Positions 17,125 to 61,877 of a DNA stretch of 64,000 nucleotides are shown here, piece by piece; within the stretch, counting starts at the first letter, position 1; every line of letters begins with the position of its first letter. Below the pieces are notes generated by a model that had not been told where the DNA came from, ran no database searches, and worked only from the letters and a program-made list of their open reading frames with translations. Made by a program: the position numbers and the translations under genes. The DNA is taken from contig JAFQWY010000044.1 of assembly GCA_017407225.1 (NCBI GenBank), positions 25 to 64,024 of the forward strand, given 5' to 3'. This DNA comes from Clostridia bacterium (GTDB lineage: Bacteria > Bacillota > Clostridia > Oscillospirales > CAG-272).

Positions 17125-17159
17125 TATTATCTATTCTCTATTCTTTCTTATCTCTTATC
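17125..17159 (-). repeat. Purine-rich heptad array (GATAAGA GATAAGA AAGAATA GAGAATA GATAATA on the minus strand)
   Basis: Five contiguous 7-nt units. Near-identical arrays lie at 61843-61877 and 55934-55968, and a degenerate one at 24664-24705. Confidence 0.85.
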
Positions 17160-17178
17160 GCAGGCGAAGCCGCTTCGT

Positions 17179-18228
17179 TTACTCACACTTTTCACGGAAC
17201 GCTGTCCATGCGTCAAGGTGCGCCTGATCCGCTTCTGCGGTGATGTTGCCGATCATTTCCATGCGGTCGGAGGTGAATTCGGTGGGCAGGGTGAGGAAGG
17301 GGCGGTATTCTTCGCTGATATAGGGTTCGGATGCGCTGGCGGTGCAGTAGTAGCCGAGATATTCGTAGCATTTTGCTCCGCGCTGGGGATCCAGGATGAA
17401 TTCGATGAACTTATGGGCCGCATCCGCATTGGGGGCTTTCGAGGGGATGAACATTCCCATGATGCCGAAGCCGATGCCTTCTTCAGGGAACACCACTTCA
17501 AGGGAGGGATCGGTCATCTTCGCCATGGTCACCTGGGAGGTATAGATCACGGCGGCGTCGATTTCTCCGGCAAGGAGGTCGTCCTGGGTATTGTCGTCCT
17601 TGATGAGACGGATATTGGGAGCCAGAGCGGTCAGATGTTCGCCGGCAGCTTTGATGGTGTCCACATCGGTGGTGTTGTAGCTTTCGCCCATGACCTTCAG
17701 TGCCATGCCGTTGATCACACGGTAGTTGGAGATGATGCCAACCTTGTCAGCCAGAGCGGGATTCCACAGGTCTGCGTAGCCGTTAATTTCAATGTCAATC
17801 TTTGCGGGGTTGTACACAATGGTCTGAACGCCCGCGCCGTAGGGGATGGTGTATTCGTCGGTGGGATCGAAGAACTGACCCTGATACAGGGGATTCACGT
17901 TGCCGTGGGAGGGGATTTTCGCCTTGTCCAGCTTCTGTGCCAGACCTTCGGCGATAACGGTTTCGATGATGTAGTCGTCGGCGATGATGAGGTCATAGGT
18001 GCCGCCTTCTTCCGCCTGCAGCTTGGCAAGCATGGTTTCGCCGTAGTCGTAGTTGACGTAATTGATGCGGATGCCGGTTTCGGCTTCAAAATCGGCGAGG
18101 ACTTCGTCGGGGAACATTCCCGCCCATGTGTAGAGGTTGAGTACCTCACCGGATCCGGATGTGCAGGACACCAGTGCGGGCAGGATGAGGATGAGCGCGA
18201 GAACGAGGGTGAAAATACGCTTTTTCAT
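17179..18228 (-). CDS. potD: Spermidine/putrescine ABC transporter substrate-binding lipoprotein
   Basis: Lipobox LVSCTS. LNLYTWAGMFPDEVLADFEAETGIRINY is typical of PotD/PotF. It is the last gene of a potABCD-ordered operon. Confidence 0.85.
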   Translation of the reverse strand: MKKRIFTLVLALILILPALVSCTSGSGEVLNLYTWAGMFPDEVLADFEAETGIRINYVNYDYGETMLAKLQAEEGGTYDLIIADDYIIETVIAEGLAQKLDKAKIPSHGNVNPLYQGQFFDPTDEYTIPYGAGVQTIVYNPAKIDIEINGYADLWNPALADKVGIISNYRVINGMALKVMGESYNTTDVDTIKAAGEHLTALAPNIRLIKDDNTQDDLLAGEIDAAVIYTSQVTMAKMTDPSLEVVFPEEGIGFGIMGMFIPSKAPNADAAHKFIEFILDPQRGAKCYEYLGYYCTASASEPYISEEYRPFLTLPTEFTSDRMEMIGNITAEADQAHLDAWTAFREKCE

Positions 18229-24619: not shown

Positions 24620-24663
24620 AACAACATTCCCCAACCGTGAAGTCTGCACGGATTCACTGCTGA

Positions 24664-24705
24664 AAGAATAAAGAAGATAGAACAAATCATAAAGAATAAA
24701 GCAAA
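24664..24705 (+). repeat. Degenerate purine-rich heptad array (AAGAATA AAGAAGA TAGAACA AATCATA AAGAATA AAGCAAA)
   Basis: It has 7-nt periodicity and lies immediately upstream of the 24717 start. Confidence 0.6.
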
Positions 24706-24716
24706 GGAAACCGCCC

Positions 24717-25967
24717 ATGCCTTACGTTCCTTTCACAAAGGAGATGAAGGAAACCCACACCATCCTCATCCCCAATATGCTGCCCATCCACTTCAAGCTG
24801 GTCAGCCGTATTTTGAATAACTTCGGATACAAAACCGAACTTCTCACCACCACCAATGCATCCATCGCGGAAACCGGACTGAAATACGTCCATAACGATA
24901 CCTGCTATCCCGCCATCCTCGTTATCGGACAGATGCTGGAAGCGCTCATGTCCGGGAAATACGATACCAAAAAGTGCGCGCTGATGCTGTTCCAGACCGG
25001 CGGCGGATGCCGTGCTTCCAATTACGTCTCCCTCATGCGGAAGGCTCTGGAAAACGCCGGGATGCCATACGTTCCCGTGCTTCCTCTGGGTCTGGCGGGC
25101 ATCGAAAAGCACCCCGGATTCGAAAACTCCATCCCCATGTACCACCGCATGGTCTATGCCGTTCTCTACGGAGATCTGCTCATGTCCCTTGCCCATCAGG
25201 TGCGCCCCTACGAAATCACAAAGGGAGACGCCGATGCCCTGTGCGACAGGTGGGTGGACCGTCTTGACAGGGAGCTGCAGCATAAGACCATCAATTACGC
25301 GAAAATCAAAAAGAACTACGACGAGATCATCCGGGACTTTGCCGCCGTGCCCAGAGAAAAGCGGGAAGCTGTCAGAGTCGGCATCGTCGGCGAGATTTAT
25401 GTGAAATTCTCCCCCCTCGGCAACAACAATCTGGAAAAATTCCTGGTCAGCGAGGGCGCGGAAGTGGTTCTCCCCGGTCTGGCGGACTTCTTCAACTACT
25501 GCCTGTACAACGGCGTCGTGGACTACCAGCTCTACGGCAAGGGCAAGTTCAGCCATGTGCTGAATCAGATCGGCTTCGACTTCATCTGCGGAAAGCAGAA
25601 GGACCAGATCGCCGCCATCGAAAAGGAAGGTACCTTCCGTGCCATGACTCCCTTCTCCCATACCGTGGAGCTTGCCAAGGGCTATATCGGTTACGGCACC
25701 AAGATGGGCGAAGGATGGCTCCTGACTGCGGAGATGATCGAGCTTGCCGAATCCGGCGTGAAGAACATTGTCTGCACCCAGCCCTTCGGATGCCTGCCCA
25801 ACCACATCTGCGGCAAGGGCATGATGAAGCCCATCAAGGAAAAAATCCCCGGGGTCAACATCGTCGCCATCGACTACGACGCAGGCGCATCTGCGGTCAA
25901 TCAGGAAAACCGCCTGAAGCTGATGCTGGCCGCCGCACGAAGAAACCTGGAACTGTCTGCGGAATAA
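24717..25967 (+). CDS. 2-hydroxyacyl-CoA dehydratase-family / activase-associated (DUF2229-like) protein
   Basis: HNDTCYPAILVIGQMLEAL, FQTGGGCRASNY and QPFGCLPNH are motifs typical of this family. It lies directly after the activase gene. Confidence 0.75.
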   Translation: MPYVPFTKEMKETHTILIPNMLPIHFKLVSRILNNFGYKTELLTTTNASIAETGLKYVHNDTCYPAILVIGQMLEALMSGKYDTKKCALMLFQTGGGCRASNYVSLMRKALENAGMPYVPVLPLGLAGIEKHPGFENSIPMYHRMVYAVLYGDLLMSLAHQVRPYEITKGDADALCDRWVDRLDRELQHKTINYAKIKKNYDEIIRDFAAVPREKREAVRVGIVGEIYVKFSPLGNNNLEKFLVSEGAEVVLPGLADFFNYCLYNGVVDYQLYGKGKFSHVLNQIGFDFICGKQKDQIAAIEKEGTFRAMTPFSHTVELAKGYIGYGTKMGEGWLLTAEMIELAESGVKNIVCTQPFGCLPNHICGKGMMKPIKEKIPGVNIVAIDYDAGASAVNQENRLKLMLAAARRNLELSAE

Positions 25968-48839: not shown

Positions 48840-48947
48840 GATTTCCGCAAGGAAATCAACCTTAACTGCCGCAGGCAATTTCACTTTCCGCAGGAAAATT
48901 TCACGCTGCGAAGCAGTATTTCACTCACCGCAGGTGAATTTCACTCT
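48840..48947 (-). repeat. Palindrome plus four 20-bp-period direct repeats (minus-strand unit GTGAAATTnnCCTGCGG)
   Basis: ATTTCAC recurs at 48878, 48898, 48918 and 48938, exactly 20 nt apart. CCGCAGG-like cores lie at 48845, 48869, 48888, 48908 and 48928. The palindrome GATTTCC-GCAA-GGAAATC is at 48840-48857. Confidence 0.85.
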
Positions 48948-54290: not shown

Positions 54291-54854
54291 ATGGCTTTAC
54301 ATCGTCCTGCGCGCCGGTTCGGTGCACCGCAGATTTCCGTGAAAAAAATACCCGTCCGCCTGTTCGGAACCGTATCCGAATCCATCGTGGACGGACCCGG
54401 CATCCGTTTTGTGATTTTTGTACAGGGATGTCCCCATCACTGTCCCGGATGCCACAATCCCGGCTCCCACGATCCCGAAGGCGGCACACTGACCGATACG
54501 TCCGCACTCTGGGACACCATACTGAAGTATCCCCACATAGACGGGATCACATTCTCCGGCGGCGAACCCTTCACCCATGCCGCAGCTCTGGCGGAACTTG
54601 GGAAAGCTGCCCGGGAAAAGGGTCTGAACGTGATGACCTACTCCGGGTACACCTACGGGCGGCTTCTTGAGATGGCAGAGACCGATTCTGCCGTGCATGA
54701 GCTGCTGACGGTGACCAATTATCTCGTGGACGGGCCCTTTATTCTCGCCGAGCGGGATCTGACCCTGAAATACCGGGGCAGCCGGAATCAGCGGATTCTG
54801 GATGTGACCTGCTATCCCAATTCCGCAGATGCCGCAGAGGCGGATTTTGCGTGA
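54291..54854 (+). CDS. nrdG: Small glycyl-radical-enzyme activating radical SAM protein (NrdG-type)
   Basis: SIVDGPGIRFVIFVQGCPHHCPGCHNP contains the CxxxCxxC cluster. GITFSGGEP is present. The 187-aa size is typical of anaerobic RNR activases. No nrdD is adjacent. Confidence 0.75.
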   Translation: MALHRPARRFGAPQISVKKIPVRLFGTVSESIVDGPGIRFVIFVQGCPHHCPGCHNPGSHDPEGGTLTDTSALWDTILKYPHIDGITFSGGEPFTHAAALAELGKAAREKGLNVMTYSGYTYGRLLEMAETDSAVHELLTVTNYLVDGPFILAERDLTLKYRGSRNQRILDVTCYPNSADAAEADFA

Positions 54855-54927
54855 GAGAAGGGCTGCGCGGCGAATAAATATATTGATAAAAAACAACCAC
54901 CATACTATATTCGGAGGTATCACATAC

Positions 54928-55920
54928 ATGAGCAAGCAGAGAATCCTTGTTATATCCAGTGCGAATATTGATTTTGTTCAGCGGATGCGGCGGATGCCCT
55001 ATTCCGGCGAGACCGTGATCGAGAATGAGCTGATGTATTCGTACATCCCCGGCGGCAAGGGAGCGAACAGTGCCATTGCCTTTGCGCGGTTCGGTGCGGA
55101 CACGGTATTTGCCTGCAAGCTGGGGCATGATGCGAACGGCAAGCGGCTCAGAGCCATCTACGACCGGGAAGGCATCGACACCCGGTACATCTACGAGGAC
55201 GAAGAGACCCCCACGGGGCTGGCTTCCATTCTGGTGGAGGACAACGGCAAGAACCGGATCATTGTGTACCCCGGTGCCAACATGACGCTCAGTGCGGACG
55301 ATATCGAGGACAGCTTCACGTGCTACCCCGATGCGGTGTATATGCAGCTGGAAATTCCCGATGAGGCCGTTATCGAAGCCGCACGCCGCGCCAACGAAGC
55401 CGGAATTCCTCTCTTTATCGATGCAGGGCCGGCGAGACTGGATTTCCCCCTGGATAAGCTGGGAAAGATCGAGATTTTCTCTCCCAACGAAAGCGAATGC
55501 CGCATTTTCACCGGAGTTACTCCCAACACCGAAGAAAACTGCCTCCGCGCCGCCATCCGTCTTTCCTCCCTCGTGGAAGCGAAATACATTGTCATCAAGC
55601 TGGGTGACAAGGGCGCGTTCATTTACGACGTGGGCAAGCGGGAATACTTCACCGTTCCCAGTGAAAAGGTCGAGGCCGTGGATACCACTGCTGCCGGAGA
55701 CATCTTCACCGCTGTCATGACCTACGTTTATCTGCAGAACAAGGACATCGTGTCCGCGGTCAAGTACGCCACCTGCGCGGCTGCGACCTCCGTCACCAGA
55801 GAGGGTGCATCCACGTCCATTCCCACCCGTGCGGAAGTCATCGCATACGCGAAGGCGAAGGTTGCGGCGGACAACGACAAGGACAACGCCGATGCGGTTG
55901 TTGCCGAAGGAGATGAATAA
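54928..55920 (+). CDS. rbsK: Ribokinase (PfkB family)
   Basis: The start MSKQRILVISSANIDF has GGAGGT upstream. GGKGANSAIA, the NESE motif SPNESE and DTTAAGD are canonical ribokinase motifs. Confidence 0.8.
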   Translation: MSKQRILVISSANIDFVQRMRRMPYSGETVIENELMYSYIPGGKGANSAIAFARFGADTVFACKLGHDANGKRLRAIYDREGIDTRYIYEDEETPTGLASILVEDNGKNRIIVYPGANMTLSADDIEDSFTCYPDAVYMQLEIPDEAVIEAARRANEAGIPLFIDAGPARLDFPLDKLGKIEIFSPNESECRIFTGVTPNTEENCLRAAIRLSSLVEAKYIVIKLGDKGAFIYDVGKREYFTVPSEKVEAVDTTAAGDIFTAVMTYVYLQNKDIVSAVKYATCAAATSVTREGASTSIPTRAEVIAYAKAKVAADNDKDNADAVVAEGDE

Positions 55921-55933
55921 GCGCCTCCGGCTA

Positions 55934-55968
55934 AGATAAGAGAGAATATTGAATAGATAATAGATAAG
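55934..55968 (+). repeat. Purine-rich heptad array (AGATAAG AGAGAAT ATTGAAT AGATAAT AGATAAG)
   Basis: Five 7-nt units lie between rbsK and ruvX. Confidence 0.8.
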
Positions 55969-56014
55969 AATCCGCCCGTACTTTTGCGGAAGCGGATGAG
56001 TCGGAGTACAGTTT

Positions 56015-56440
56015 ATGATTATTGTAGGACTTGATTTCGGCGATGCCAGAACCGGGGTTGCCGTGTGCGATAAATATGAAATGATGGCCACCGACGCGGG
56101 ATGCGTGGCTGCGGACAGCTATAAGAAGGCTCTCGCCGCCGTTGCGGAACGGGTGAAGGAGCTGAAGGCGGAGCTGATCGTGGTGGGAAACCCCATCAAC
56201 ATGGACGGCTCCCAGGGATTCCGCAGTGAAAAGTGCAAAGCTTTCGCAAGGGAGCTGTCGGAGCTGACCGGAATTCCCGCGGAAATGTACGACGAGCGGC
56301 TGACCACGGTTTCCGCTCACAAGATTCTGAATGACAACAACGTACGGGGCAAGAAGCGCAAGGCGACGGTGGATACCCTGTCCGCGCGTCTGATTCTGGA
56401 GGACTACCTGACCGTACGGAAGAACAGAGGTACGGTATGA
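56015..56440 (+). CDS. ruvX: Holliday junction resolvase-like nuclease RuvX/YqgF
   Basis: MIIVGLDFGDARTGVAV... ELIVVGNPINMDGS ... DERLTTV are canonical YqgF motifs. Confidence 0.9.
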   Translation: MIIVGLDFGDARTGVAVCDKYEMMATDAGCVAADSYKKALAAVAERVKELKAELIVVGNPINMDGSQGFRSEKCKAFARELSELTGIPAEMYDERLTTVSAHKILNDNNVRGKKRKATVDTLSARLILEDYLTVRKNRGTV

Positions 56441-59380: not shown

Positions 59381-60886
59381 GTGAAAAGAACTTTTACATT
59401 CCTGCTGGCTCTGCTTCTTCTCCTGCAGACAACTGCCTGTGCATCCGAAAATCCTGAAACACCCGAAACAGATGCTCCGGCAGCGGAAACAGGCGTTACC
59501 GCTTCGGATGAAACAGTAACGGAAGAAACCGAAGCAGGACTTGTGAAGGATGATCTTCCGGAGGATCTTGATTTTGATGGCGAGACCGTTACCATTCACA
59601 TCCGCAACGGGGACCAGGGAGATCCGGAAGGAAACTGCATCATGGAAATGACGGTCGAAGAGCTTAACGGCGAGATCCTGAATGATGCAATTTTCAACCG
59701 CAACATTGCGGTCAACGAGCGTCTCGATGTCAGGATCACTCCTTATGTCAGTTATGACTGGACCGGATATCAAGAAGCGCTGAACGAAATCCGGACAAGC
59801 GTCAATGCCGGTGAGGATGCTTACGATATTATCGCAGGATGGTGCAACAGTGATCTGGTTTCCCTTGCGGCGGACGGCTGCTTCCTTGATCTTGCCGGTG
59901 CGCCGTATCTTGACCCGGGAAAGCCCTGGTGGAATCAGTCGCTGGGATCCCAGAACATTTTCGGCGGTCAGAAATACTTTATGACGGGGGAAGCCAATAT
60001 TCTCACTTCTCTCGGCTGCGCCATGGGTGTATTTGTAAATGAAAAGATTGCCTCCGATTATCAGCTCGGAAATTTTGCGGATTATGTCCTCGAAGGAACA
60101 TGGACCATTGACAGGATGAGTGAAATCACGGAGATGGTATTCGAAGATCTCAACGGAAACAATACCAAGGATGCGGCTGACCGTGTCGGCAGTGTTCTCA
60201 CCGACTATCTGGCGGCTGATGCTTTCTACACTTCTTTTGATATGCATCAGATTAAGATTGACAATGACGGCAATGTGGCCTACGAACCCGATATGGAACG
60301 GATCCATGATGCGGTTACAAAGATCAACGATCTTCACTGGAATAATCCCGGCGGTCTCGGCGGGGTGAGCAACACCGCTTTCAGAAAGATTTTTCTCGAG
60401 GGCAGAGCTCTGATGTCAATCGATTTTATTGAAGCTTCCCGCGAGGAGCTCAGATTGATGGAAGATACCTACTACATCATTCCGACTCCCAAATTCGATG
60501 AAAAGCAGGATCGGTACTATACCTATTTCTTCAACGATATGACGGTTCTTTCCGTACCTGTAACCAATCTGCAGGAAGAGGCGGCTTATGCAACCATGGA
60601 AGCCCTTTCTTCGGAGAGTTATTTCCGTGTAACGCCGGTATTCTTCGAAGATTGTATGCAGAGCAAATATGCGCGCACCGAAGTCACACGGCAGATGCTG
60701 GAGCTTATCCGGGAAACCTGCTACGTTGACTATGAGTATGTGTACGGAAGACTGTTCAACACACCCGCATTCATTTTCCGGAATCTGGTAATGGGCGGCA
60801 GCAATGATTCCGCCTCCATGATTGCAAGAAACAGTAAACTGGTTGAGAAGCTGATTCAGAGAGCCTACGACAGTTTCGCGGACTGA
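59381..60886 (+). CDS. Large extracellular solute-binding-type lipoprotein (paralogue of 12089..13558)
   Basis: Lipobox QTTACAS. The shared block is EELNGEILNDAIFNRNIAVNERLDV versus EELTGDDFNDAIFNRNERIMDKFNI. Confidence 0.6.
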   Translation: MKRTFTFLLALLLLLQTTACASENPETPETDAPAAETGVTASDETVTEETEAGLVKDDLPEDLDFDGETVTIHIRNGDQGDPEGNCIMEMTVEELNGEILNDAIFNRNIAVNERLDVRITPYVSYDWTGYQEALNEIRTSVNAGEDAYDIIAGWCNSDLVSLAADGCFLDLAGAPYLDPGKPWWNQSLGSQNIFGGQKYFMTGEANILTSLGCAMGVFVNEKIASDYQLGNFADYVLEGTWTIDRMSEITEMVFEDLNGNNTKDAADRVGSVLTDYLAADAFYTSFDMHQIKIDNDGNVAYEPDMERIHDAVTKINDLHWNNPGGLGGVSNTAFRKIFLEGRALMSIDFIEASREELRLMEDTYYIIPTPKFDEKQDRYYTYFFNDMTVLSVPVTNLQEEAAYATMEALSSESYFRVTPVFFEDCMQSKYARTEVTRQMLELIRETCYVDYEYVYGRLFNTPAFIFRNLVMGGSNDSASMIARNSKLVEKLIQRAYDSFAD

Positions 60887-60918
60887 TGATATTCGACATC
60901 CGATTAAGAGGTGATATT

Positions 60919-61791
60919 ATGAAAGACACAAAGCTTTGCGGCATCATGCCTGCGCTGATGACCGCGTTCAATGATTACGGTGTGGATACCCAGAAGGTGG
61001 CGGCTCACTCCAAGTGGCTGGCTGACAGCGGTGTGCACGGTCTTTATGTGGGCGGATCTTCCGGTGAAATGATCCTCATGACCGAGGACGAACGGAAGTG
61101 CCTGCTGGAAACCGTTGTAGGCGCAGTCGGCGACAGACTGACCATCATCGCGCACGTGGGCACCACATCCACCAGAGGAACTCTGGAGCTGGCACGCCAT
61201 GCTGCAAAATGCGGCGCACACGCTCTCTCCTCCGTGACTCCCCTGTACTACAAGTACAGCTATAAGGAAGTCAAGCACTACTACGAACAGATTGCGGCGG
61301 AAACCGATCTGCCCGTGATCATCTACAACATCCCCGCGCTGACCGGAACCACGCTGAACTACGATCAGCTGTGTGAAATTCTGTCCATCCCCGGTGTGGG
61401 CGGCATGAAGTTCACCTCCTCCGACTTCTTCCAGCTGGAAAGAATCCGCGCGGCGTTCCCGGACAAGGTATTCTACAACGGCTCCGACGAAATGCTCCTC
61501 TCCGGTCTTGCGGCAGGAGCTGACGGCGGCATCGGCACCACCTACAACTATCAGCCCTCCCGGATTCTGGGCGTGTACAACGAATTCCATAAGGGCAACA
61601 TGGCAAAGGCTCTGGAATATCAGGCAAAGGCAAACGAAACCATCGCGAAGATTCTGAAGTACGGTGTGCTTCCTTCCTGCAAGATGATCATGAAGCTCAA
61701 CGGCATGGACTACGGTACCTGCCGCGAACCCTTCATGCCTCTGGACGAAGCGGCCATTGAAGATCTGAAGACCGTGACTCTCGCGGACTGA
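60919..61791 (+). CDS. nanA: N-acetylneuraminate lyase / DHDPS-family aldolase
   Basis: The start MKDTKLCGIMPALMTAF has AAGAGG upstream. GLYVGGSSGE, IIYNIP and the Schiff-base lysine context GGMKFTSSD resemble NanA more than DapA. Confidence 0.7.
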   Translation: MKDTKLCGIMPALMTAFNDYGVDTQKVAAHSKWLADSGVHGLYVGGSSGEMILMTEDERKCLLETVVGAVGDRLTIIAHVGTTSTRGTLELARHAAKCGAHALSSVTPLYYKYSYKEVKHYYEQIAAETDLPVIIYNIPALTGTTLNYDQLCEILSIPGVGGMKFTSSDFFQLERIRAAFPDKVFYNGSDEMLLSGLAAGADGGIGTTYNYQPSRILGVYNEFHKGNMAKALEYQAKANETIAKILKYGVLPSCKMIMKLNGMDYGTCREPFMPLDEAAIEDLKTVTLAD

Positions 61792-61807
61792 CATCAATCA
61801 AGCAAAA

Positions 61808-61837
61808 CGGTATCTCCTTCCCGGGGATGCCGTTTTT
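61808..61837 (+). terminator. Intrinsic terminator after the nanA-like gene
   Basis: CGGTATCTCC (61808-61817) pairs with GGGGATGCCG (61823-61832) with two G-U pairs, followed by TTTTT. Confidence 0.7.
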
Positions 61838-61842
61838 GCTTG

Positions 61843-61877
61843 GATAAGAGATAAGAGAGAATAGATAATAGATAATA
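61843..61877 (+). repeat. Purine-rich heptad array (GATAAGA GATAAGA GAGAATA GATAATA GATAATA)
   Basis: Five perfect-period 7-nt units are followed by AATCTGA. This is the best-preserved copy of the family. Confidence 0.9.

Follow-up and report, generated by a model that had tools for sequence, protein, structure and literature searches.

The window analysed here is a stretch of 64,000 nucleotides of contig C169 of a Clostridia genome (hereafter G000; an assembly of 3.96 Mb in 375 contigs, with 52.7% G+C and 92% completeness). It carries four arrays of tandem, purine-rich 7-nt units, which lie beside genes that Pfam assigns to DHDPS, to a PfkB kinase and RuvX, to a solute-binding protein and to a DUF2229 protein (Table 1). 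As the initial annotation had stated, each of the four sites lies between co-directional genes, and the arrays at 61843 and 17125 are followed by the sequence (A)TCTGA. All four arrays are also present where they had been placed, but the register of the third was off by one, its five heptads occupying 55935-55969 and not 55934-55968. The arrays are clearly non-random: a search for three GAKAAKA units with at most three mismatches gives 10 overlapping matches in the window, against a mean of 0.01 in 100 dinucleotide-preserving shuffles of the same DNA. Since RAKAAKA reads almost the same backwards, a reversed-pattern control is uninformative for it.

Table 1. Heptad arrays, modules and neighbouring features in the window
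Feature	Coordinates	Strand	Sequence or structure	Context
Solo module	17125-17173	-	Mini-hairpin GCGGCTTCGCC (17173-17163); TGC where TAA is expected; five heptads (17159-17125)
Array of this module	17125-17159	-	GATAAGA GATAAGA AAGAATA GAGAATA GATAATA
Solute-binding-protein gene	17179-18228	-		Pfam
Degenerate type-B array	about 24663-24705	+	AAAGAAT AAAGAAG ATAGAAC AAATCAT AAAGAAT AAAG; TRF period 7
DUF2229 protein gene	24717-25967			Pfam
PfkB kinase gene	54829-55920			Pfam; stop codon 55918-55920
Complete solo module	55921-55969	+	Mini-hairpin GCGCCTCCGGC (55921-55931); TAA (55932-55934); five heptads (55935-55969)	Starts directly after the PfkB-kinase stop codon
Array of this module	55935-55969	+	GATAAGA GAGAATA TTGAATA GATAATA GATAAGA
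Single-copy rest of the 94-nt spacer	55970-56014	+	Hairpin ATCCGC...GCGGAT, then GGAG Shine-Dalgarno	Before ruvX ATG 56015
RuvX gene	56015-56440			Pfam
DHDPS gene	60886-61791			Pfam; stop codon 61789-61791
Intrinsic terminator of the DHDPS gene	61804-61837	+	12-bp stem, then TTTTT	Directly 5' of the 61843 array
Type-A array, five heptads	61843-61877	+	GATAAGA GATAAGA GAGAATA GATAATA GATAATA; no mini-hairpin	After the intrinsic terminator, before the leader of the following small ORF (ATG 61964)

The terminator that precedes the 61843 array was read directly from the sequence, having been missed by a simple consensus scan, and is kept in G046, the closest relative found (88% protein identity). 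The module at 17125 begins 5 nt past the stop codon (17181-17179) of the solute-binding-protein gene, and the degenerate array at 24663 lies 15 nt 5' of the ATG at 24717. The initial annotation had placed two of the copies next to a structured repeat, which is about 300 nt long. This adjacency is real at 17125 and 24664 but is no rule, as an array is found within 90 nt upstream in only 4 of the 24 copies of the repeat; for the same reason we rejected the idea that the array is the integral 5' end of that repeat.

Scanning the whole G000 assembly for (RAKAAKA)x3 with at most two mismatches uncovered 74 such arrays, spread over at least 40 contigs. Five units make up 47 of the 74, and 65 have four to six units within a total range of two to six; TRF assigns them a period of 7 (or 14 or 21). 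Their composition is 62% A, 20% G, 17% T and 0.6% C. There are two flavours that grade into one another, type A, with the units and unit order of the 61843 array, and type B, with AAAGAAT-like units. In every unit four A positions are invariant, and the remaining positions are only R or K and hardly ever C. According to a home-made codon-usage gene caller, which is crude, 66 of the 74 arrays are intergenic and the other 8 fall inside doubtful ORFs.

The orientation and position seen at the four window sites hold throughout the genome. Between co-directional neighbours the purine-rich strand is the sense strand in 43 cases and the antisense strand in 8 (binomial p = 7e-7), and the upstream gene lies on the purine strand in 51 cases and on the opposite strand in 14. 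Of these 51 same-strand arrays, 33 lie within 35 nt of the upstream stop codon, and a TAA or TGA stands directly before the array in 41 of the 74. The arrays are themselves rich in stops on one strand: 43 of 65 have a stop codon in all three sense frames, whereas 62 of 65 have none on the antisense strand. We also considered whether orientation follows the direction of replication, as in an IS200/IS605-like element. This was ruled out, since the array at 17 kb is on the minus strand and those at 24, 55 and 62 kb are on the plus strand of a single contig, their strand tracking the local genes.

No Rfam family matches at the arrays, either at the gathering threshold or at E <= 1. Sub-threshold matches to miRNA precursors on one array palindrome reflect only its hairpin shape. 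Independently, two copies of Gut-1 RNA (Rfam RF01706) are present in G000, one in the window at 48873-48946 (-) and one at C221:6565-6640, scoring 75.6 and 70.9 bits against a gathering threshold of 50; about 85 nt downstream of the copy on C221 there is an array module.

The array does not travel alone. A short GC-rich mini-hairpin, GCGSCTKCGSC, followed by TAA occurs in 29 copies in G000, and an array follows in 24 of them; hairpin, TAA and array are one jointly copied module of about 49 nt. Variants of the hairpin stem are compensatory (GCC/GGC, GGC/GCC, GGCG/CGCC and GCCC/GGGC), and they co-vary with the subfamily of the array, GCGCCTTCGGC being paired with arrays that hold the odd unit TTGAATA. 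This TTGAATA subfamily has at least nine copies that are 89-96% identical over 47 nt. Unit order is likewise position-specific, with G at position 6 of units 1-2 and T at the same position in units 3-5. Together, the covariation of hairpin and array, the shared TTGAATA copies and the position-specific order indicate copying from master sequences rather than independent slippage.

Larger combinations of the same parts also occur. An 81-83-nt unit made of mini-hairpin, TAA, five heptads and a CTCCACGGCGCGCGTGAG hairpin is repeated four times in tandem at C356:11380-11664 (-) and twice at C34:25148-25330 (+). After each of these tandem amplifications comes a conserved module of about 150 nt (GGATAAG.AAC.ATTT..GTTACTATATC...), which is present at no fewer than eight loci and has no Rfam match. 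A place for the array within a REP/RAYT system was rejected: the REP of G000, which does have a RAYT gene, is GGGACGTCGGGGCGCCGTCCCC and differs from the mini-hairpin GCGSCTKCGSC, and no array lies within 90 nt of a REP pattern match in G000.

At the junction of the PfkB kinase gene and ruvX the module can be compared with an empty site. In G046 and in most of the 19 congeners examined these genes overlap by ATGA, whereas in G000 the kinase, unchanged in length, ends in TAA and is followed by the 94-nt spacer. The contrast identifies the module as a block insertion exactly at the stop codon, with one clean empty site. Translational coupling through ATGA is ancestral in the genus and was broken in G000 by this insertion. 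Only the first 47-49 nt of the spacer recur in G000, at no more than 96% identity, and the remainder has no other copy. In G000 a Shine-Dalgarno sequence of its own precedes the ruvX ATG by 8 nt (region 55918-56017), and G051 has a similar short spacer with the same Shine-Dalgarno sequence. The empty site shows no target-site duplication, no transposase or other function for mobilisation is associated with the module, and we know of no transposase activity for the IVP protein described below. Inverted arms of the kind that characterise MITEs are present in the paired form of the module.

Comparison of G000 with G046 reveals how the arrays change. At 15 usable orthologous gene ends the array is present in both genomes in seven cases and in G000 only in eight; at the solute-binding-protein gene (the 17125 site), for example, G046 has the terminator only. 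All seven shared sites differ in unit order, number or family. At the ortholog of 61843, G046 has a mini-hairpin and a diverged five-unit array in the same place, in which 10 of 15 variable positions have changed while all 20 of 20 A positions are kept, and the C98 array has six units in one species and five in the other. Adjacent to one tRNA gene both species have a palindrome, whose arms are of type B in G000 but of type A in G046. The arrays, in other words, turn over by whole units. The suggestion in the initial annotation that this is a slippage-prone module, which we extend to gene conversion, is borne out to the extent that orthologous arrays differ in the number and order of units and keep the invariant A.

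Other heptads can also occupy such positions. At two G046 loci, L212 and L216 (orthologs of C1:20161 and C197:34133), five units of different heptads (TAATGCA-like and AAGAGTG) follow the stop codon directly, so that the five-unit length and the post-stop position persist while the unit sequence is replaced. RAKAAKA arrays are patchily distributed in the genus: G000, G011, G044 and G046 have many of them and G049, G007 and G002 fewer, while 37 of 53 genomes have none. Other species of the genus use other heptads, such as TAGTGGT in G057.

The four window sites are solo arms without a partner. The common form in Clostridia is larger and consists of a purine array, a hairpin and a pyrimidine array. 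In G000 itself six inverted pairs fold into long hairpins, for instance with -75 kcal/mol for 170 nt at C343. A search for (GAKAAKA)x4 found the motif in at least 120 records from many phyla, a taxonomic spread that is a lower bound. Among the matches listed, the upstream gene is on the purine strand in 70 cases against 24 (p = 2e-6), and a reverse-complement partner lies downstream in 12 cases and upstream in 2. One of these records, L111 (8 kb), contains seven heptad arrays, several of them paired around hairpins, immediately beside consensus TTGACA-17-TATAAT promoters, and resembles a mobile or phage-like region in which the modules serve as terminator-promoter junctions.

Some of the paired arrays are associated with genes for S23p/IVP proteins (PF05635). 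G000 has two such genes. The first, at C190:17423-17067 (118 aa, Pfam E = 2.5e-23), begins 14 nt past a palindrome of type-B arrays; the second, at C113:6440-6730, has a palindrome upstream at C113:6760-7000 (-). The latter palindrome is built of 20-21-nt units, each GTGAAAT plus a GC mini-hairpin of 3-4 bp, with about four units per side. Similar palindromes of a 7-mer plus mini-hairpin, with other 7-mers (ATGATG, GTGATG, ATATCGC), precede PF05635 genes in at least nine genomes or loci of the genus.

A PF05635 gene is present in 16 of 53 genus genomes. In five of the genus genomes (G049, G022, G068, G067 and G057) inverted heptad arrays, of about five units where counted, enclose the IVP ORF, which is placed directly between a stop codon and the following Shine-Dalgarno sequence. 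When a profile of the genus IVP proteins was run against the cross-phyla records, IVP ORFs appeared in seven to eight loci among the matches listed, four of them directly abutting an array; four of about 120 listed arrays is, by a rough estimate, some 40 times the chance expectation. In L061 and L055 a module of mini-hairpin, TAA, five purine heptads, hairpin and five pyrimidine heptads is followed by the IVP gene and then recurs. The order in L102 is stop, purine arm, hairpin, IVP, hairpin, pyrimidine arm, Shine-Dalgarno sequence and start, and that in L114 is pyrimidine arm, IVP and purine arm. Complementary termini that make a long stem are present at L061, L055, L102, G049, G022, G067 and G068, and besides C190 at least nine loci have a PF05635 ORF within the arms or immediately next to them. 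The purine arm of L061 is identical at 33 of 34 positions to a TTGAATA-subfamily copy of G000. The initial annotation had named, as an outcome that would speak against it, that the motif is just the terminal part of a larger known repeat. This proves to be partly so: the array is the terminal arm of a larger palindromic module, which is found flanking S23p/IVP genes elsewhere and at one locus of G000. No PF05635 ORF lies near any of the four window copies, there is no simple correlation in the genus between the abundance of arrays and the presence of IVP, and no IVP gene was found in the array-rich genomes G044 (92% complete) and G046 (61% complete).

The arrays fall within a known class, the intergenic heptanucleotide repeats of bacteria. 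We consider it probable that they are, specifically, the stop-proximal arm of a modular, palindromic, IVS-like selfish cassette that in other genomes carries an S23p/IVP gene. In full, the module runs from a GC mini-hairpin through TAA and five purine heptads (RAKAAKA) to a hairpin at its centre and then five pyrimidine heptads complementary to the first five. It flanks or brackets, in several Clostridia, the gene for a homopentameric four-helix-bundle S23p protein (PF05635), the whole being inserted between the stop codon of one host gene and the start codon of the next. Most G000 copies, including all four in the window, lack this gene and are reduced to the left arm of mini-hairpin, TAA and array. 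That the window copies originated from such a cassette is suggested by homology of the module rather than by local evidence. Where both arms are present, the transcript could form a stem of about 35 bp, and this stem might act as a terminator arm, in a genus that has no Rho, or, by analogy with the IVSs of rRNA, as a substrate of RNase III. A solo purine arm would be unable to pair and would ride passively in the mRNA as an unstructured, C-poor and stop-rich spacer. Solo arms are regarded here as, most likely, inert spacers.

This selfish-cassette origin could account for the sense-strand rule in two ways. The palindrome would always present its purine arm first, so that the arm beside any upstream stop codon would be purine-rich on the sense strand of that gene. 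In addition, the U-rich partner arm may be lost or selected against where transcription must enter a co-directional downstream gene; before such a gene it would be terminator-like or would sequester the Shine-Dalgarno sequence, which would explain its loss there. Two observations fit less well. Solo modules that are 89-96% identical appear to have multiplied independently, which a model of decayed remnants does not account for. Purine arrays also occur just 5' of start codons (24663; C57:16421; C81:3498), a position for which the model predicts a pyrimidine arm.

An unlikely role would be that of a multivalent platform on mRNA or single-stranded DNA, in which five 7-nt registers of the form (K-A-R)-A-K-A-A are bound by a putative ring protein. 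Binding would regulate the stability, processing or translation of the flanking genes, or the spread of the module. The best candidate for the ring would be the homopentameric S23p/IVP toroid, with one heptad per subunit. The modal length of exactly five units is what such a ring would call for, as is the retention of five units at orthologous G046 sites despite a new family of units (AAGAGTG x5, TAATGCA x5), and the invariance of the four A positions, with only R or K and almost never C elsewhere, would suit a bound sequence. IVP genes physically abut such arrays, and the G000 IVP protein matches PDB 2RLD (E = 1.4e-34), a single entry with five chains; the S23p protein of Xanthomonas is a homopentamer, and Avd, which is related to S23p, is a pentameric, positively charged barrel. 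Against this, G044 is the richest genome of the genus in arrays and yielded no IVP gene, and the modal number of units in Xanthomonas is four and not five. An array is found, moreover, at only about 1.6% of gene ends, and the genes concerned are functionally unrelated.

Other proteins that might bind such a platform were sought without success. Hfq, considered as a binder of (AN)n sites, was not found in G000, nor was a match to HutP (PF09021), considered for NAG-N4 sites; the array can be read as (KAG-N4)x5, the spacing of HutP sites. Cold-shock domain proteins, which have 7-nt footprints, were not found in this 92% complete genome either. Rho (PF07497) is present in 0 of 53 genus genomes by a search that gave matches in 9 of 14 named control genomes, and loading of Rho on the G-free antisense strand was rejected on account of this absence. 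A Clostridial lineage that has neither Rho nor cold-shock domain proteins may merit a separate look.

Extending the toroid to other heptamers yields a broader proposal that we hold to be decidedly unlikely. Here the five-heptad array would be the putative register of the S23p/IVP toroid, one 7-nt unit per subunit, and the STRR, GGGAATC, TAACTGA and RAKAAKA repeats would all be cis sites of one widespread protein-nucleic-acid system, related to Avd of the diversity-generating retroelements, that would write, move or process modules at gene boundaries.

It is improbable, in our judgement, that the arrays are primarily orientation-specific transcription elements, in which the T-rich strand, as the non-template strand, would give a U-tract or TTNTTT NusG-pause motifs beside hairpins. 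In a genus that lacks Rho, such an element would halt read-through or antisense transcription and let sense transcription pass. With Rho missing from all 53 genus genomes, termination must be intrinsic, and the paired modules, with their long A/U arms, do resemble bidirectional terminators. Several arrays (C1, C151, C190:8874, C49:20573) have a stop codon on one side and a canonical terminator on the other, and the strand bias of the upstream gene extends across phyla among the matches listed. However, a GC hairpin follows within 8 nt downstream in 23 of 74 arrays (31%), against 24% of random intergenic positions, the hairpin at 61843 is on the wrong side for antisense termination, and type-A units read TTATCT or TTCTCT rather than TTNTTT.

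We give equally little credence to the proposal that the arrays are simple sequence repeats made by slippage, arising site by site from A-rich post-stop sequence and homogenised by gene conversion, the link to cassettes being incidental. Heptamer repeats are over-represented in many prokaryotes and have been ascribed to polymerase slippage (Mrazek 2007), and unit number and order do differ between G000 and G046, as at C98 and 61843; slippage would not, however, carry along a non-repetitive mini-hairpin and TAA that co-vary with the subfamily, nor produce a position-specific order of units, an arm that is nearly identical in another genome or a clean block insertion at an ATGA overlap. H-DNA formed through the mirror symmetry of a purine tract was dropped as a candidate because T interruptions break the tract.

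To our knowledge, bacterial heptamer repeats have been known since 1990, are over-represented, and have no accepted function or origin. What is already known is the class of intergenic heptamer repeats; what is added here is the junction with the stop codon, the mini-hairpin, the five-unit mode and the polarity. The statement in the initial annotation that no such element had been described stands for the exact sequence, the heptads not having been found in the literature as a bacterial repeat, but not for the class, which includes the cyanobacterial STRR and the TAACTGA and GGGAATC repeats. A limited, untargeted literature search did not find a link between heptad arrays and PF05635 cassettes.

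To the anatomy of these repeats the present analysis adds a fixed length of five units, a mini-hairpin and stop codon copied with the array, insertion at the stop codon (at one site) and strict polarity. Tying the purine-rich heptamers of Clostridia to the gene for a pentameric four-helix-bundle protein would join two orphan observations into one testable system. The modules also reshape operon junctions, as at PfkB/ruvX, where a translationally coupled pair has been uncoupled, and they should be masked or annotated in genomes assembled from gut metagenomes.

The closest known relatives are other intergenic heptanucleotide repeats, namely the STRR of heterocystous cyanobacteria (Mazel 1990) and the heptamer "long SSRs" (Mrazek 2007), and the GGGAATC repeats of Xanthomonas (Rehm 2015, PMC4692102). 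The syntax of GGGAATC comprises about four units, convergent pairs, proximity to the upstream ORF, and orthologous sites with sequence turnover (PMC4692102). The G000 arrays share with these three families tandem 7-nt units, mostly four to five in each array, a dispersal over tens to hundreds of intergenic loci, a position near the end of the upstream ORF, and frequent convergent inverted pairs. As in these families, orthologous sites are kept between sister species while length and sequence vary. Unlike in these families, the RAKAAKA unit is purine-rich, nearly free of C and unable to form a G-quadruplex, and the array is welded to a non-repetitive GC mini-hairpin and TAA that are copied with it. 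The strand bias relative to genes is strong in G000, unlike that of GGGAATC in Xanthomonas (30% vs 35%).

The TAACTGA direct repeats of marine Beggiatoaceae, cyanobacteria and Bacteroidetes (MacGregor 2015, PMC4679880) are also heptamer arrays (two to six units) in intergenic mRNA space. They have one preferred orientation, which places stops in every frame; no self-structure is predicted for them, and the flanking genes show no functional pattern. They lie directly 5' of start codons and overlap the ribosome-binding site, whereas the G000 arrays mostly follow stop codons, and no cassette or hairpin partner has been reported for them, in which the G000 arrays differ. The BIME/REP elements of enterobacteria and the BOX elements of Streptococcus pneumoniae resemble the G000 modules as modular, transcribed intergenic mosaics of hairpins and linkers that tend to follow gene ends and can amplify in tandem; REP and BOX have no heptad arrays, however, and the REP of G000 itself is not part of the module.

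The cassette form is best compared with the intervening sequences of 23S rRNA that carry an S23p ORF in Coxiella burnetii and Leptospira, which are regarded as selfish elements and whose stem is cut by RNase III (PMC4990558). In both systems a small gene for a four-helix-bundle S23p protein (PF05635) is enclosed by complementary termini, which pair into a stem of about 28-35 bp, and G000 has PF05635 genes next to array palindromes as well as a gene for RNase III. Unlike the rRNA elements, all copies examined here lie between protein-coding genes or beside tRNA genes rather than in 23S rRNA helices, their arms are tandem heptads, and most copies consist of a single arm with no gene.
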